In this document: positions 20,103 through 26,123 of the stretch, one piece after another
How positions within the stretch are numbered: position 1 is the stretch's first letter
Layout: each line of letters starts with the position of its first letter
Source of the DNA: Nostoc punctiforme PCC 73102
Lineage (GTDB): Bacteria; Cyanobacteriota; Cyanobacteriia; Cyanobacteriales; Nostocaceae
Assembly: GCF_000020025.1 (NCBI RefSeq)
Contig: NC_010628.1
Span: forward strand, 720,001 to 752,000
Reading direction: 5' to 3'
Length of the DNA: 32,000 nt
The notes under the pieces: generated by a model
Database searches by the model: none
What the model was told of the DNA's origin: nothing
The model's input: the letters and a program-made list of their open reading frames with translations, nothing else
Program-made: the position numbers and the translations under genes

Positions 20103-20142
20103 CTATATTCCTCGGTTTGGGAGGCGACTGTTAACTAATTTG

Positions 20143-20216
20143 TAATTCGTAATTAAATTAAGAATTACGTTAGCGTAGCGGGGCGTAGCCCATTAAGAAT
20201 TACGAATTACGAATTA
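20143..20216. repeat. ATTCGTA/TACGAAT heptamer runs in inverted orientation around a dispersed repeat core
   Basis: TAATTCGTAATT lies at ~20143 and GAATTACGAATTACGAATTA at ~20197-20216. The core GTTAGCGTAGCGGGGCGTAGCCCATT (20169-20194) recurs as GTTAGCGGTAGCGGGGCGTTTAGCCCATT at 21735-21763. Confidence 0.8.
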
Positions 20217-20409
20217 TTTTAATACTAGGGTGAATTTTGAAGCCAAGTTGCTCAAGTTTTAAATTAGATAAAGACTCCTTCAAAATGATAGTAAAGGGAT
20301 ATCGCTGAAACACAGTAGCTTTACCTTGTGACAATAGCAGCCTAGCATGGCTGATGCGTACTGGATACAATGGTTCTTGGTTGGCATCGAGAATGAATAC
20401 TTTAGTCAT
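20200..20409 (-). pseudogene. Truncated remnant of an IscB-like / RRXRR-HNH endonuclease gene (PLMP domain plus a decayed RuvC-I motif only)
   Basis: The 69-aa ORF MTKVFILDANQEPLYPVRISHARLLLSQGKATVFQRYPFTIILKE matches the IscB/RRXRR N-terminal pattern V(F/Y)V(I/L)..(K/E)PL.P…R.LL..GKA.V….PFTI.L. The following LGFKIHPSIK resembles a decayed L.LKIDPGSK (RuvC-I). The last codons IIRNS-stop are encoded by the ATTCGTA heptamer repeat. Confidence 0.6.
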
Positions 20410-21694: not shown

Positions 21695-22385
21695 AGTGCA
21701 TATCTTTAAAAACTACATTGGGCAAAATAGTTCCGTTAGCGGTAGCGGGGCGTTTAGCCCATTCCAAGTTCTGAGTAAATTAGTTACTTGGAGCGCAGCC
21801 AGAAATCGTTAAACCTGTGGCATAAATAATTGTCTTGGGATAACAACAGGTATAAGGCTTTTAGCCTAGTTCATTTTTTTACATAGTTTAATTTTATTTT
21901 GCCAACTTACTTATCAACTAATAAGGTATTAAAAGACTTGATTGAGTGCTGTAGCAATAAAAATCAGAGCTTTTTGAACTGATTCAACAACTTTTTTATT
22001 ACTCTTTTGATTAAAGAAAAGATAAGAATGAGAGTCTAAAAGTAAACTCCAGAACTCTCGTTCTTATCGAAGACTAGGGATTTTCAAAGAATAAATCATC
22101 CAATCTTGTGAGGTAATCTCACATTTATTGATAAATATTTTAGCTGTAATATTTTTCTCTATAAATACGGCAAATTGGTCGGATAACCGTTGAATTAACT
22201 ACAAGCAAAAATTATCATATACAAATTGAAAAAGCAAGCCGATTGTCAGCATCTCCAGGTGAGAACAACGCGAAAAAGTATAATTGTCCATCTCAACTAG
22301 ATGTCTATCGTTCGTCTACAATGCCAAAAAGCAAGGAAAAGCTTTACTCGTACCAACTTATCAACTTCACTCGAAGACTAAAAAT

Positions 22386-23453
22386 ATGGTCAACCTAGAA
22401 GCTGAAGATCGCAAACAATTAATAACTCTTTTAAAAGAGTTACCAGAACTGGCTACAGAGCGATCGCGTCAGCAAATTTTGGAGCTAGCAGGTTTGAAAC
22501 AAGTAATACCCATGATCAATCTTTCGGGCGCTTCATTTGTGGCAGTTAGTGAGATCGTTAGCTATCTATCTAACTACGGGCGTTTAACCTATGACCATGA
22601 AGCGCTGGGGCTGTTCTTGAATACTTTGAAAAGCCTTACGGGAGCGCAGCAGCAAGAGTTTTTGGATATGCTACTGACTAAGTATGACATGATGACCCCA
22701 ATCGCAATATTACCTGCTATCAATGAGTGGCGAGGGGGGAAAACGACTTCAGATGTATTAGAGAAAATAATTGGTGAGAACACTCTACGCCCAATCTCAT
22801 TTTTACAGCAGGGGCTTCAGGTAGCGCGGTCAGTTGCCTATATTGGGGTCATAACTAGTCAAGAACGCTGGTCAGGAACGGGATTTCTTGTAGCTGAAGA
22901 TTTATTGTTGACTAATAATCATGTTTTGCCTAGCTCAAATCTACTGGCAGATACAATTTTTCGTTTTAACTACGAAGAGAATTTTCAGGGGGAAGCTCAA
23001 CCAACTGATGAGTATCGCCCTAAACCCAATGGAGCTTTTCATACCAACCAAGCTCTTGATTACACTTTAGTTCAACTCGGAGGAGAGCCGGGAAAAAAAT
23101 GGGGTTGGTTGCCACTAGCATCTAAAGCGATTAATATTGGTAGCCGAGTTAATATAATTCAGCACCCATCAGGGCAACCTAAACAGATTTCACTTCAGAA
23201 CAATTTTGTTCAATATGTGGGCGGTAATGTGGTGCAGTATATAACCTCTACCTTGCAAGGCTCCTCTGGTTCTCCAGTTTTTAATGATGGTTGGCAGATT
23301 GTTGCTCTACACCATGCTGGGGGTAATATTCCTGAACCAACAACTCAGCAGCATTACTTTAGAAATGAGGGGATAAAGATGGAGAGCATCTTAGCCGATT
23401 TACCCCTGGAGCTTGTAGACTTGCTTAAAGCGGCAACTATTACCTCATTTTAA
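22386..23453 (+). CDS. N-terminal helical (effector-associated-domain-like) module fused to a trypsin-like serine protease
   Basis: The ATG at 22386 is preferred over the TTG at 22284. Residues ~1-100 from that ATG are all-helical in character. The C-terminal half has an ordered His/Asp/Ser triad: TNNHVL (His, nt 22920-22922), LDYTLVQL (Asp, nt 23058-23060), GSSGSPVF (Ser, nt 23265-23267). No signal peptide is seen. Confidence 0.8.
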   Translation: MVNLEAEDRKQLITLLKELPELATERSRQQILELAGLKQVIPMINLSGASFVAVSEIVSYLSNYGRLTYDHEALGLFLNTLKSLTGAQQQEFLDMLLTKYDMMTPIAILPAINEWRGGKTTSDVLEKIIGENTLRPISFLQQGLQVARSVAYIGVITSQERWSGTGFLVAEDLLLTNNHVLPSSNLLADTIFRFNYEENFQGEAQPTDEYRPKPNGAFHTNQALDYTLVQLGGEPGKKWGWLPLASKAINIGSRVNIIQHPSGQPKQISLQNNFVQYVGGNVVQYITSTLQGSSGSPVFNDGWQIVALHHAGGNIPEPTTQQHYFRNEGIKMESILADLPLELVDLLKAATITSF

Positions 23454-23486
23454 AGAGGTTTTACAAGTATTTAAAGTTCGACAAGT

Positions 23487-24749
23487 ATGAATATCAAATC
23501 CCAATTGCTAGAGTTACTAGTAAAAATGCCAAATACTCAAACTGTTGGAGAGCGTAGAGCACTCTTGACTTTCACGGGATTTGATTATCTAAATATTAGA
23601 ATAAATGAAATTCAAAGCAATAATCTTTCCTTTTTTAATGAGTTGATTGAACTGATATTATCGGAAGGACAAGATAAATTATTAAATTTTATTAGAGCGC
23701 TCGCTGATAGTGAATTTATTGGTTTAGAATTTCGGCAAAAATTCAATGCTATCATTATAAAAATTTCGTCTCTAGAACCTCAAAAATTTAATAGTGAATT
23801 TATCGAGCAGAAGAATACTCAATCAGTTAATATTATTTCTATTAGCAGCCGAAGTGAAGAAAGCTTAGAAGAACAACAAGATACAAAGTTGCCTGTTCCA
23901 GCAATTCTGGGAACTCAGTCTTTTGAATTTACAGTTGTGATAGTAGATCCCCAAGGTAAAGAAATTAAACGTAGTCGAAGACAAAATTACTACTTAACTC
24001 AAGACCTTGGTAACGGGGTAAGTTTAGAAATGGTCTATATTCCAGGTGGAGAATTTTGGATGGGTTCACTAGAATCTGAAGGAAAGCGATACTCTAATGA
24101 AAGACCTCAACATAAAGTAACAGTCAAACCATTTTTGATAAGCAAGTATGCGATTACACAAGCACAATGGAGGGAAGTTGCTACTTTGCGAGAAGTTCGT
24201 CAAAACTTAAAACTTCGCCCCTCACGCAACGGAGGAAAAAGTCATCCTGTTACCCAAGTTTCTTGGTTTGATGCTGTTGAGTTTTGCGATCGCTTATCTG
24301 AAAAAACAGGTAAACAGTATCGTCTTGCTAGCGAAGCAGAGTGGGAATACGCTTGTCGTGCTGGAACCACAACTCCTTTTCATTTTGGGGAAACTATTAC
24401 TTCCGATCTAGCTAATTATGATGGTCGTTACTCTTATGGGTCAGAAAGAAAAGGAATTTATCGTGAAATAACTACTCCCATAGGTAGTTTGCAGGTTGCT
24501 AATTTCTTTGGGCTATTTGATATGCACGGTAATGTTTGGGAGTGGTGCTTAGACCATTGGCATGAAAATTATAATAATGCACCGAATAATAGAGATAGTT
24601 TGCGAGACAGTAGTGATAATCAAATTCATGTAATGCGTGGTGGATCATGGCGCAACGACCCGTACCTTTGCCGGTCAAGTTCCCGCTTACAAAAAATTGC
24701 TAGTGAGATGTCCAACCATATTGGTTTTAGAATTGTTTGCTCGCTCTAG
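23487..24749 (+). CDS. N-terminal helical (effector-associated-domain-like) module fused to an FGE-sulfatase (SUMF1-like) domain
   Basis: 420 aa. Residues ~1-100 resemble the N-terminus of the preceding protein. Residues ~140-420 show FGE-sulfatase motifs: MVYIPGGEFWMGS, RPQHKVTV, ITQAQW, HPVTQVSWFDAVEFC, RLASEAEWEYACRAGT, MHGNVWEWC, MRGGSW, IGFRIVC. Confidence 0.85.
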   Translation: MNIKSQLLELLVKMPNTQTVGERRALLTFTGFDYLNIRINEIQSNNLSFFNELIELILSEGQDKLLNFIRALADSEFIGLEFRQKFNAIIIKISSLEPQKFNSEFIEQKNTQSVNIISISSRSEESLEEQQDTKLPVPAILGTQSFEFTVVIVDPQGKEIKRSRRQNYYLTQDLGNGVSLEMVYIPGGEFWMGSLESEGKRYSNERPQHKVTVKPFLISKYAITQAQWREVATLREVRQNLKLRPSRNGGKSHPVTQVSWFDAVEFCDRLSEKTGKQYRLASEAEWEYACRAGTTTPFHFGETITSDLANYDGRYSYGSERKGIYREITTPIGSLQVANFFGLFDMHGNVWEWCLDHWHENYNNAPNNRDSLRDSSDNQIHVMRGGSWRNDPYLCRSSSRLQKIASEMSNHIGFRIVCSL

Positions 24750-24788
24750 ACTGATGCATTGTAAATTTTTGTCTAATTTATTCATAAC

Positions 24789-26123
24789 TTATGCTATTTT
24801 ATTCTCCTCTAAAGATGAATTGTCGATGGTGAGGTGTTGATGCTTTTTGCGTGCTGCAAGAGTTTGGCGATATTCGTATGCTTGAGGCACTGGTTCAAAT
24901 ATATCAATCCTCAAAACGCCAGTTGCTTTCTGAATTTCTTTGACAGCTTGCTCAATCTCATCCATTGAAACTTTGAAAAAATCTCTTTTTGGGTTAACTG
25001 TATTCACCTTTTTATCATCAAAACGTTGATGTAAGCGCTGCAATGTATCAAAAGCATCTTCAGAGAATATTTTGAAGTGAACATCAAATTGAAATGGAAC
25101 TGCGGGGTTCATGCCCCTAATATATTCATCTTCTTTATTACGAATGGTTCTACATATTCGGTATACATCCTGTTCAAGAGAGCCTATATTAGAAACTATA
25201 TAAATATATCCCGATTTGAGTCTTCTAGATTCAGAAAGAGCAGTTTCTTGATCACTTCTATCTTCAGCAACTTGTCGTTCTAGTTCCTGAATTTTCAAAT
25301 ATAATTGTTGTCGCTTTTCGCCTTCAGTCAGTTCTATTTCTTGTCTAACTTTGTTAAGCTCTTGTTGGTGAAGTATTTCTCTTTCTTCAGCTTCTTCAGC
25401 TTTCTGTGTTGCCTTGTCAATTGATTCACGTTCTTTATTTTGCTTTTTATCTTCTAGCTCTCTCTCGCGCTCTTGCTGTTTTTTATCTTCTAGCTCGTAC
25501 TGTAAATCTAACTCGATTAATTTCAATTGCAAATATTCTTCTGAGATTTTAGAATTTAAGGTTTTTAAACACTTATTATATTTGCTAAACGTATTATTTA
25601 TTCTCTTTTTCAAAGAGTCAATATTGTTATATCTAACTTCTTTTACCGCATACTTACATCGTTCTTCAAACGCAAGCTCAACCAATTTGAGAATGTCGTT
25701 TATCATTTTGTCGCCTTTTCTTGTACTATCACCAACAGTCCATTTAGTATCACAAATATACGCTTGGTTATTTTTTACCATATTTTCCTGTTGTAACTTG
25801 ATATTCTTCAGCCTATGTATGTAGTCTTCAGAACTGATAAACTCATACTTTGGCTCATAGTAATCTATAGATTGAAGATAGATTTTTGCATCAAGTTCAG
25901 AAAATTGCTGCTGAAGATTTATGATTTTGGTATTAAGAGATAGCTGCTGATTTTCTAGTAAATCAATATTTGATGCCAATTGCCGTTGATACCCTTCTTT
26001 GTCAGCTAATGTATCATACCTACGTAACTTCTCCCTCACCTGAGACTCTGCAATTAATGCTTGTACTAATGCAGCAATAAGTCCGGCTACTAATACCAAT
26101 AATCCTAGAAGTGTTAACGACAT
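24789..26123 (-). CDS. Membrane-anchored coiled-coil protein with DUF4041-like region and C-terminal T5orf172/MUG113 (GIY-YIG-superfamily) domain
   Basis: The N-terminal TM is LTLLGLLVLVAGLIAALVQALIA. Long heptad-rich, charged stretches are present. The DUF4041-like block is YICDTKWTVGDSTRKGDKM…LQLKLIELDLQYE. The C-terminal domain is GYIYIVSN…YRICRT…VPFQFDVHFKIFSEDAFDTLQRLHQRF…NPKRDFFKV (nt ~24939-25211). Confidence 0.78.
   Translation of the reverse strand: MSLTLLGLLVLVAGLIAALVQALIAESQVREKLRRYDTLADKEGYQRQLASNIDLLENQQLSLNTKIINLQQQFSELDAKIYLQSIDYYEPKYEFISSEDYIHRLKNIKLQQENMVKNNQAYICDTKWTVGDSTRKGDKMINDILKLVELAFEERCKYAVKEVRYNNIDSLKKRINNTFSKYNKCLKTLNSKISEEYLQLKLIELDLQYELEDKKQQERERELEDKKQNKERESIDKATQKAEEAEEREILHQQELNKVRQEIELTEGEKRQQLYLKIQELERQVAEDRSDQETALSESRRLKSGYIYIVSNIGSLEQDVYRICRTIRNKEDEYIRGMNPAVPFQFDVHFKIFSEDAFDTLQRLHQRFDDKKVNTVNPKRDFFKVSMDEIEQAVKEIQKATGVLRIDIFEPVPQAYEYRQTLAARKKHQHLTIDNSSLEENKIA

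Follow-up and report, generated by a model that had tools for sequence, protein, structure and literature searches.

Gene organization of the locus

We describe a three-gene module of ~3.7 kb in Nostoc punctiforme PCC 73102, analyzed within a 32-kb stretch of genomic DNA (the window, to whose numbering all positions refer); the feature under study spans 22386-24749, together with its convergent neighbour. The first gene (22386..23453, + strand) encodes a 355-aa protein (ACC79380.1 / WP_012407405.1) that joins an N-terminal effector-associated domain (EAD) of the EAD8 family to a trypsin-like serine protease domain. A 33-nt spacer (23454..23486, +) separates it from a co-directional second gene (23487..24749, +), whose 420-aa product (ACC79381.1 / WP_012407406.1) consists of EAD8, a linker and an FGS domain (FGE-sulfatase / C-type-lectin fold; FGE, formylglycine-generating enzyme). 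Across a 39-nt tail-to-tail gap (24750..24788), the opposite strand carries a third gene (24789..26123, -) for a 444-aa homologue of the nuclease SNIPE, or PD-lambda-1 (ACC79382.1). All three proteins match these accessions at 100% identity. An earlier note on this DNA had placed the first two genes 33 nt apart in the same direction, and the open reading frame (ORF) coordinates agree.

The protease ORF begins with an ATG at 22386. An alternative TTG start listed at 22284 is unsupported, since the MVNLE beginning encoded from the ATG is common to every protease homologue. No terminator-like site was found in the 33-nt spacer, which makes co-transcription of the protease and FGS genes likely; a promoter and terminator scan around the genes gave no signal exceeding shuffled expectation. 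In relatives, the gap between the FGS and SNIPE-like genes measures ~15-190 nt, with a maximum of 768 nt in a decayed locus (L100).

An EAD8-tethered protease and a putatively non-catalytic FGS protein

The N-terminus of the protease matches Pfam EAD8 (PF19961) over aa 7-100 (22404..22685, +; E 2.3e-26, 92.8 bits against a cut-off of 27), and AlphaFold2 (AF2) models it as a six-helix bundle with a predicted local distance difference test score (pLDDT) of 93.2. It is followed by a strongly conserved segment (aa 101-145; 22686..22820, +) that contains the invariant motif EKI.GENTLRPI in the homologue alignment and whose hidden Markov model (HMM) matches all orthologues. This segment may be a pro-segment or activation segment, a regulatory role that is speculative. 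The Trypsin_2 domain occupies aa 164-308 (22875..23309, +; Pfam E 5.9e-24), with catalytic codons assigned by alignment to H179 (22920-22922, +), D225 (23058-23060) and S294 (23265-23267), the last being Ser328 under TTG-start numbering. Because this triad is invariant among 13 diverse homologues and the protein lacks a signal peptide, the earlier description of a cytoplasmic trypsin-like protease with an intact triad stands, its localization being a prediction. Among solved structures, those of V8/Glu-endopeptidases and Spl proteases come nearest to it. The protease family is 65-95% identical across filamentous cyanobacteria and some Chloroflexota.

The second protein starts with its own EAD8 copy (aa 2-92; 23490..23762, +; Pfam E 1.4e-5), and a disordered acidic, Ser-rich tether (aa 97-131; 23775..23879, +; AF2 pLDDT 23-34) connects this to a beta-rich extension and the FGS domain (aa 136-420; 23892..24746, +; assigned by Pfam and by alignment to a caspase-FGS protein). 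The FGE-sulfatase domain proper (PF03781) covers aa 181-417 and nearly the full profile (positions 4-254 of 255; E 1.2e-57, 195.9 bits versus a cut-off of 23.3), bearing out the FGE-sulfatase fold proposed previously. The fold assignment rests on sequence, as the AF2 model of the full-length protein has a mean pLDDT of only 56.9, falls below 50 in the FGS half and was left out of the fold search. Within the otherwise disordered and variable tether sits a motif, LEEQQDTKL.VP..GTQ.FEF (23865-23915; aa 127-143), that is common to EAD8-FGS and caspase-FGS proteins (aa 380-396 of the caspase-FGS protein P0063). It may be a processing or regulatory site, though this is speculative. Neither a Walker A motif nor a Pfam match to an NTPase was found in the 420 residues.

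Among proteins of known structure, the FGS domain is closest to PvdO (5e-38), followed by FGEs and TvpA, a lectin of a diversity-generating retroelement (DGR). Both cysteines of the catalytic, copper-binding pair of FGE (CxxxxC), which lies close to the C-terminus of that enzyme, are lost: in the alignment, 'LcHDSYCN' of the Streptomyces coelicolor enzyme (2q17/6muj) stands opposite 'R-NDPYLC', such that the first cysteine falls within an insertion that the N. punctiforme protein lacks and the second lies opposite a leucine. With the pair missing, binding or sensing is a more plausible role for the domain than enzymatic catalysis. These observations bear on another explanation of the locus, in which the two proteins serve ordinary metabolism and the N-terminal region they have in common is just a helical segment of generic type. 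Three points favour it, namely how NCBI names the FGS protein, the relationship of that protein to PvdO and the metabolic genes upstream. We nevertheless regard it as very improbable, given the loss of the catalytic cysteines, NCBIfam equivalog scores far under their cut-offs (PvdO 160 versus 500, EgtB 69 versus 360), an N-terminus that is a defined conflict-system adaptor, nearest FGS domains that are fused to caspase, CHAT or TIR, and a linkage to SNIPE that stays constant while the flanks vary.

A sensor diversified by a DGR at this locus was considered and rejected. The window contains no template repeat copying the 3′ end of the FGS gene, and no YxDD reverse transcriptase motif occurs among its ORFs of at least 250 aa. 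Furthermore, the residues equivalent to the variable region (389-410) are near-identical among close Nostoc strains.

Two EAD8 subtypes

The earlier note had drawn the two N-termini as collinear and weakly similar, resembling the EADs of Kaur et al. 2020. The profile searches it proposed for both segments return EAD8 in each case, well above the Pfam cut-off for the protease and just under it for the FGS protein, and we take the module to be EAD8 itself. Using hhalign with 51 FGS-family N-termini, from which bridging members with an obviously protease-like EAD8 had been taken out, we compared the FGS side with the protease EAD8 alignment. The two match along 85 collinear columns (probability 92.3%, E 5.4e-7), and the register is that originally drawn. 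Likewise, AF2 predicts six helices in the FGS-protein EAD8 that are collinear with those of the protease (pLDDT 75-87), and about half of the FGS-protein orthologues carry a precomputed PF19961 match. Homology of the two N-termini at the profile level is thus supported by comparison of the alignments; the similarity does not extend to direct pairwise BLASTP, which is blank.

The Foldseek search with the protease EAD8 model placed Death and CARD domains at the top, but non-significantly (best E 0.34, TM-score 0.45-0.60), so that a Death-like fold for EAD8 is merely a suggestion. No Death or CARD Pfam match was found at E <= 1, and profile comparisons have linked EAD8 only to EAD1, EAD2 and EAD5 (Kaur et al. 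2021, eLife 10:e70394).

EAD8 modules at these loci fall into two subtypes, a highly conserved one on the protease and a faster-evolving one on its partners. For protease-side modules the median score is 182 bits with their own HMM, compared with 16 bits when the FGS-type HMM is used. Conversely, EAD8 modules linked to NTPases reach a median of 82 bits with the FGS-type HMM and 19 bits with the protease HMM, placing FGS and STAND NTPase partners in one common partner-side subtype. This subtype is rare (140 clusters at 50% identity among 1.84 billion representatives) and nearly always N-terminal, and many of its carriers lack an NTPase. The proposed homotypic recruitment is therefore only loosely the correct term: both copies are EAD8, but of different subtypes. 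In seven FGS-family members and at locus L011, however, the FGS-protein EAD8 is near-identical to that of its own protease (93/109 positions, or 85%, at L011), which suggests, from the alignments, repeated gene conversion or domain swapping between the subtypes.

Partner proteins with a protease-type rather than a partner-type EAD8 were seen at L011, L040, L047 (2297-2647) and L057. In P0275, NB-ARC is fused to a protease-type EAD8.

A constant protease with variable partners

We surveyed 62 protease loci, using one genome per species and scoring called ORFs with HMMs built from our alignments. What stays constant across these loci is the protease gene, whereas its partner changes. The gene directly downstream on the same strand, usually 15-140 nt away, nearly always starts with EAD8; such an adjacent partner is present in 47/60 protease loci, and the remainder are mostly contig ends. 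This adjacency of EAD8 carriers corresponds to the 'EAD principle' of Kaur et al. 2020. The partners are EAD8-FGS proteins of ~420-470 aa with no Walker A motif (19 loci), EAD8 joined to a STAND NTPase (18 loci; NB-ARC-TPR, nSTAND1-WD40, nSTAND1-FGS or nSTAND5-TPR by Pfam), and EAD8 joined to TPR, TCAD2 or an unannotated region (10 loci). The protease and EAD8-FGS genes are adjacent and co-directional in all 19 genome loci of the first class and on 2 metagenome contigs, answering positively whether the pair is conserved as neighbours.

The EAD8-FGS protein of N. punctiforme is a chimera. Its aa 103-420 (linker, beta-rich extension and FGS) are 72% identical to aa 356-672 of the caspase-FGS protein P0063, whereas identity between its FGS domain and the one in the EAD8-nSTAND1-FGS protein at L047 is just 27%. 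Its EAD8 module does align with that of L047 (30% identity, E 5e-6). Together, these values indicate a partner-type EAD8 joined to a linker and FGS of the caspase-FGS type. Origin by deletion of the NTPase from an EAD8-nSTAND1-FGS protein, a candidate we considered, was rejected on the same identities.

Apart from EAD8-FGS proteins, the nearest FGS relatives carry a fused caspase (Peptidase_C14), CHAT or TIR domain. These fusions contain no NTPase and hold the same position beside SNIPE. EAD8 together with a separate EAD8-trypsin gene thus in effect takes the place of an effector fused covalently to FGS. This equivalence provides the best available support for an adaptor role of EAD8 and for operation independent of an NTPase. 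A small Pepco gene (PF24393, 112-125 aa) lies immediately upstream of the caspase- or CHAT-FGS gene at L090, L095 and L098, in the position that EAD8-trypsin takes in N. punctiforme.

Consistent with the earlier statement that no NTPase is nearby, no STAND or AAA+ NTPase was found in the 32-kb window, where P-loop proteins are limited to an AAA_33 kinase-like ORF and NadR. Nor was an EAD-bearing core NTPase or ternary component (VMAP, iSTAND, STAND or GAP1) found in the window or in the 10-kb flanks of the 19 EAD8-FGS loci. In the search for a cognate NTPase elsewhere in the genome, a profile of EAD8 N-termini preceding NB-ARC or nSTAND1 retrieved at least 139 proteins, with none from N. punctiforme among the matches listed and with iSTAND2 and VMAP types outside its scope.

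These results bear on a model in which the protease and FGS protein are accessory modules docking onto an EAD8-NTPase or ternary core encoded elsewhere in the genome, which would supply an NTP-dependent switch in the form of EAD8-STAND or of EAD8-iSTAND2 with MoxR and vWA. We consider this unlikely, though it has precedents. Extra EAD copies may be encoded at a distance, and their presence then goes together with a matching EAD on one of the core components (Kaur et al. 2020), and the order EAD8+Trypsin_2, an unassigned gene, EAD8+iSTAND2, MoxR, vWA is recorded for Microcystis and Nostoc sphaeroides (Kaur 2021 supplements). The FGS-protein EAD8 also belongs to the subtype found on STAND NTPases (the median of 82 bits above), and protease orthologues are paired with EAD8-STAND genes in 18 other loci. 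In opposition to this model, however, the trio of protease, FGS and SNIPE genes has travelled as a unit, accompanied by no NTPase gene, through at least 10 contexts and to a plasmid; the caspase-, CHAT- and TIR-FGS sister fusions lack an EAD and hence any docking route to such a core; and the EAD8+NB-ARC/nSTAND1 profile lists no N. punctiforme match.

A SNIPE homologue is linked to the effector-FGS unit

The third gene is a convergent homologue of SNIPE. Its product matches the PADLOC model PD-Lambda-1 (PDLC03976) at 1.6e-95 over aa 38-432, and Pfam identifies DUF4041 (5.5e-19) together with the GIY-YIG-type nuclease families MUG113 (3.7e-7) and T5orf172 (1.2e-5). The protein also contains a coiled coil and, judged by inspection, a hydrophobic N-terminal helix at aa 4-25 (LLGLLVLVAGLIAALVQALIA); the GIY and downstream motif residues are invariant among 12 relatives. 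In Escherichia coli, SNIPE (formerly PD-lambda-1) is a membrane-anchored nuclease that acts alone, cutting phage DNA during injection (bioRxiv 10.1101/2025.11.03.685801).

The locus had been described as a two-gene cassette, which our survey revises to a unit of three. A convergent SNIPE gene is present in 18/18 EAD8-FGS loci with enough downstream DNA (47-94% identity), compared with 0/28 loci with other partners. More broadly, SNIPE accompanies this FGS clade in all ~30 assessable loci, whether the effector is an EAD8-tethered trypsin or a fused caspase, CHAT or TIR; the cyanobacterial SNIPE clade lies tail to tail with an effector-FGS gene at loci L001-L024, L063-L068 and L090-L100. Look-ups of caspase-FGS and CHAT-FGS genes returned a convergent SNIPE every time, with a Pepco gene upstream in some. 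The relationship also holds in the other direction: in a metagenome scan, a convergent FGS gene comes next after 6/6 SNIPE relatives at 39% identity or above. It encodes EAD8-FGS, accompanied by the protease, in two cases, caspase-FGS in one and TIR-FGS in one, and is truncated in the other two. Outside these groups the association disappears on both sides, as distant SNIPEs (27-31% identity; L071-L086) form tandem pairs without FGS and two more distant FGS fusions (P0044, P0059) have no SNIPE.

Among 18 loci, 12 distinct contexts were counted upstream of the trio and 10 downstream. On a plasmid of Nostoc sp. HK-01 it is complete though its gene order is rearranged, and L004 still has a SNIPE despite replacement of the allele (53% identity, versus 79% for the FGS domain). 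Two decayed loci keep SNIPE or a remnant of it. In N. punctiforme the GC content of the module (22000-26000) is 33-39%, against 41-47% in its flanks, which fits horizontal acquisition as judged by base composition, and the flanking genes (a luciferase-like monooxygenase and an RluA-like gene) are common only to the closest Nostoc strains. A phage-borne cassette was rejected, with no relative of the protease found in IMG/VR viral contigs.

The SNIPE preprint (bioRxiv 10.1101/2025.11.03.685801) makes no mention of a linkage to FGS genes, and the strings DUF4041 and T5orf172 do not occur in the searchable supplement files of Kaur et al. 2021. The linkage of SNIPE to the effector-FGS unit thus appears unreported.

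The decaying copies have features of their own. Both L094 (Nostoc sp. MS1) and L100 encode an EAD8-FGS protein that is cut short at its C-terminus. DDE transposases are inserted at L094, where the SNIPE remnant is fused to a transposase call, and at L100 the protease has shrunk to a 159-aa EAD8 fragment.

Such constancy raises the question of mechanistic coupling between SNIPE and the FGS-effector unit. In one version of a single three-gene system, the FGS domain would guard or read out SNIPE, or phage proteins engaged by SNIPE; in another, the activated protease would process SNIPE, for example freeing the nuclease from its membrane anchor and turning direct defence suicidal. We hold such coupling to be possible but rather doubtful. 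It would account for a linkage that is strict and reciprocal across four effector types, that outlasts replacement of the SNIPE allele and rearrangement of gene order, and that lapses in distant FGS fusions and distant tandem SNIPEs, each of which occur without the partner. The protease version has biochemical precedent in that SNIPE without its transmembrane anchor is highly toxic and cuts host DNA (bioRxiv 10.1101/2025.11.03.685801), and the activation of pro-nucleases by proteases, as in caspase-nuclease pairs among others, is well established in defence (PMC12799240). Against coupling, the E. coli enzyme works alone, the genes are convergent and hence not co-transcribed, SNIPE has no EAD8, the nucleases of the precedent are of the MBL fold rather than GIY-YIG, and complementary defence genes are often co-located without being physically coupled. 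Moreover, the TIR-FGS variant (L068) cannot act by proteolysis, which rules out a purely proteolytic link to SNIPE. Similarly tentative, and in our view improbable, is a two-tier, guard-type defence without an NTPase switch, in which FGS monitors SNIPE or the phage entry machinery and fires the suicide effector if the nuclease is overrun or inhibited, a response that might extend to releasing or activating the membrane-anchored nuclease by proteolysis.

A proposed model for NTPase-independent defence

On balance, the locus is probably a small, horizontally mobile, NTPase-independent anti-invader module made of two transcription units, one for an EAD8-docked protease and its FGS sensor and one for SNIPE. 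In the first unit, probably an operon, the cytoplasmic trypsin-like protease would be the effector and the non-catalytic FGS protein the sensor, with the protease-side and partner-side EAD8 domains docking one onto the other. The docked pair would be the non-covalent counterpart of the caspase-FGS, CHAT-FGS and TIR-FGS polypeptides. Binding of an invader-derived ligand by the FGS domain would cluster or de-repress the tethered protease, and the activated protease would cleave cellular targets, arresting or killing the infected cell of the filament (abortive infection). An NTPase switch would not be required. The convergent second unit would contribute SNIPE as a membrane nuclease that is co-inherited with the first and is, most simply, a complementary first line of defence.

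Several results lend this model weight. Adaptor-tethered trypsin-like proteases have precedent in bacterial immunity (PMC10312443, PMC13236601), and sister fusions that themselves have no NTPase support operation without one. The earlier suggestion that the FGS protein acts as a direct ligand sensor is likewise favoured by the lost FGE cysteines and by these fusions, with ligand sensing itself a conjecture.

Other observations weigh against the model. The FGS-protein EAD8 reaches 26.1 bits, just under the 27-bit Pfam cut-off, and direct BLASTP of the two 110-aa N-termini gave no alignment at E <= 100. Conservation is unequal, at 78-96% for the protease EAD8 and just 52-85% for the partner EAD8, so that simple co-evolution of a tight EAD8-EAD8 interface is not evident. 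The FGS domain is the best-conserved part of its family, and EAD8 and the linker are the most variable; this is the opposite of what would be expected for a diversifying invader sensor, and the window holds no DGR that could diversify it. EAD8 proteins and this FGS clade are known from computational prediction alone, and the characterized adaptor-protease systems all include an NLR-like ATPase (PMC10312443, PMC13236601). A monomeric lectin-like sensor leaves the oligomerization that would activate the protease unexplained, and it is possible that an EAD8-NTPase is encoded in trans elsewhere in the 8.2-Mb genome.

EAD-type adaptor systems of multicellular bacteria comprise a large body of predictions, among which this locus is unusually small and tractable and lies in a genetically workable Nostoc. 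It could show whether EAD8 domains dock an effector to a sensor and whether a lectin-fold FGS triggers a protease without a STAND ATPase, for which the natural covalent fusions to caspase, CHAT and TIR are ready-made controls. It also carries an unexplained, strict three-way linkage, and could reveal why SNIPE, which stands alone elsewhere, invariably pairs with an effector-FGS unit in cyanobacteria.

Genomic neighbourhood

The remaining genes of the window are of housekeeping type (among them purA, L25, a luciferase-like monooxygenase, an RluA-like synthase, NadR and PnuC). PADLOC gave no match on the other unannotated ORFs of the window; the module thus forms an islet in housekeeping surroundings and does not belong to a large defence island.

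An Rfam search of the window returned just two tRNA-like matches, distant from the locus. These are two abutting genes (8593-8664 and 8666-8737, +; tRNA scores of 50 and 36 bits), flanked by an SDR-like ORF and purA. Of the two, ARAGORN recognizes the first alone and assigns it no identity; a 4-base anticodon, 'ttca', suggests an 8-nt anticodon loop.

Closer to the module, a 69-aa ORF (20133-20409, -) matches the N-terminal part of RRXRR (PF14239, E 2.9e-13; profile positions 1-59 of 174), and this fragment is probably the remnant of an IscB/HNH-type element. It is adjoined by a 22-nt inverted repeat (20133-20154 / 20198-20219, 91% complementary), at which no Rfam RNA reached its gathering score.

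Comparison with known systems

The earlier note called the cassette undescribed, which is too strong. EAD8 is an existing Pfam family (PF19961; Kaur et al. 2020). EAD8+Trypsin_2 genes, EAD8+nSTAND1+FGS proteins and a locus without an NTPase, in which PNPase+bDLD3 precedes bDLD3+FGS, are already known as predictions (Kaur et al. 2021, eLife 10:e70394), and a locus with EAD8-nSTAND1-FGE and EAD8-trypsin has been discussed as 'DGR6' of Thiohalocapsa PB-PSB1 (Dore et al. 2023, bioRxiv 10.1101/2023.09.22.558884). The exact EAD8-FGS architecture is absent from the searchable Kaur 2021 supplements, where the string 'EAD8+FGS' does not occur.

The nearest described relatives by adaptor are the loci pairing EAD8-nSTAND1-FGS with EAD8-trypsin (eLife 10:e70394 Fig. 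2I; 10.1101/2023.09.22.558884). They share with the N. punctiforme locus the protease family with its N-terminal EAD8, an adjacent partner that begins with a partner-type EAD8 and ends in FGS, and a predicted logic running from sensor through adaptor to protease. In contrast to their partner proteins (~825 aa), however, the 420-aa N. punctiforme protein has no STAND domain between EAD8 and FGS, and its FGS belongs to a different clade (27% identical to L047, 72% to caspase-FGS). STAND-FGS conflict systems frequently associate the FGS gene with a DGR and have a central STAND, KAP or AP-GTPase NTPase (Kaur et al. 2021); the N. punctiforme locus shows no DGR association within the window and does have a SNIPE neighbour, which is absent from the EAD8-nSTAND1-FGS loci.

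Similar in layout is the PNPase+bDLD3 and bDLD3+FGS pair of Symploca sp. SIO2E6 (NET60851.1/NET60852.1, 414 aa), also two adjacent genes with one common adaptor, an FGS protein of ~415 aa and a filamentous cyanobacterial host. Both this pair and the pair of bDLD3-NPCBM and bDLD3-PNPase (Kaur et al. 2021) combine an enzyme effector with a lectin-fold partner and no NTPase. The Symploca adaptor is the Death-like bDLD3 instead of EAD8, and its effector a PNPase nucleosidase instead of a protease. Its operon string reads '-> <-HAD', and no SNIPE-type label is present in the searchable supplements.

The cyanobacterial orthocaspase-, CHAT- and TIR-FGS fusions resemble the N. punctiforme module in their linker-FGS part (60-73% identical, including LEEQQDTKL.VP), in their convergent SNIPE neighbour and in having no NTPase. 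They differ in carrying the effector on the same polypeptide, with no need to recruit it through EAD8 as proposed for N. punctiforme, and a Pepco gene often precedes caspase- and CHAT-FGS.

Among characterized systems, CARD-NLR with CARD-trypsin (Wein et al. 2023, PMC10312443) and Caulobacter LypABC (PMC13236601) likewise use a trypsin-like protease with a small helical N-terminal adaptor. There, the adaptor binds the N-terminal domain of its partner, the catalytic serine is essential, and the cell dies or lyses in the end. An NLR-like ATPase is indispensable in those systems, whose executioners are gasdermins or nucleases, whereas the N. punctiforme partner is a lectin-fold protein, and EAD8 does not match CARD significantly in either sequence or structure (best E 0.34, TM-score 0.45-0.6).

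The N. punctiforme SNIPE homologue has the full architecture of SNIPE / PD-lambda-1 (Vassallo et al. 2022 screen; bioRxiv 10.1101/2025.11.03.685801), comprising a putative N-terminal transmembrane helix (by inspection), DUF4041 and GIY-YIG/T5orf172. E. coli SNIPE is a stand-alone gene, in contrast to the cyanobacterial clade, which is always convergent with an effector-FGS unit. Finally, protease-activated pro-nuclease pairs, among them the caspase-nuclease 'canu' (Tuck et al. 2025, Science, PMC12799240), are similar in genetically linking a trypsin-like or caspase protease to a nuclease, in an arrangement that recurs across antiviral system types. The nuclease of these pairs has an MBL fold gated by a cleavable segment, whereas that of N. 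punctiforme is a GIY-YIG SNIPE for which cleavage is hypothetical, and the existence of the TIR variant indicates that its nuclease link runs through the FGS module rather than through the protease.

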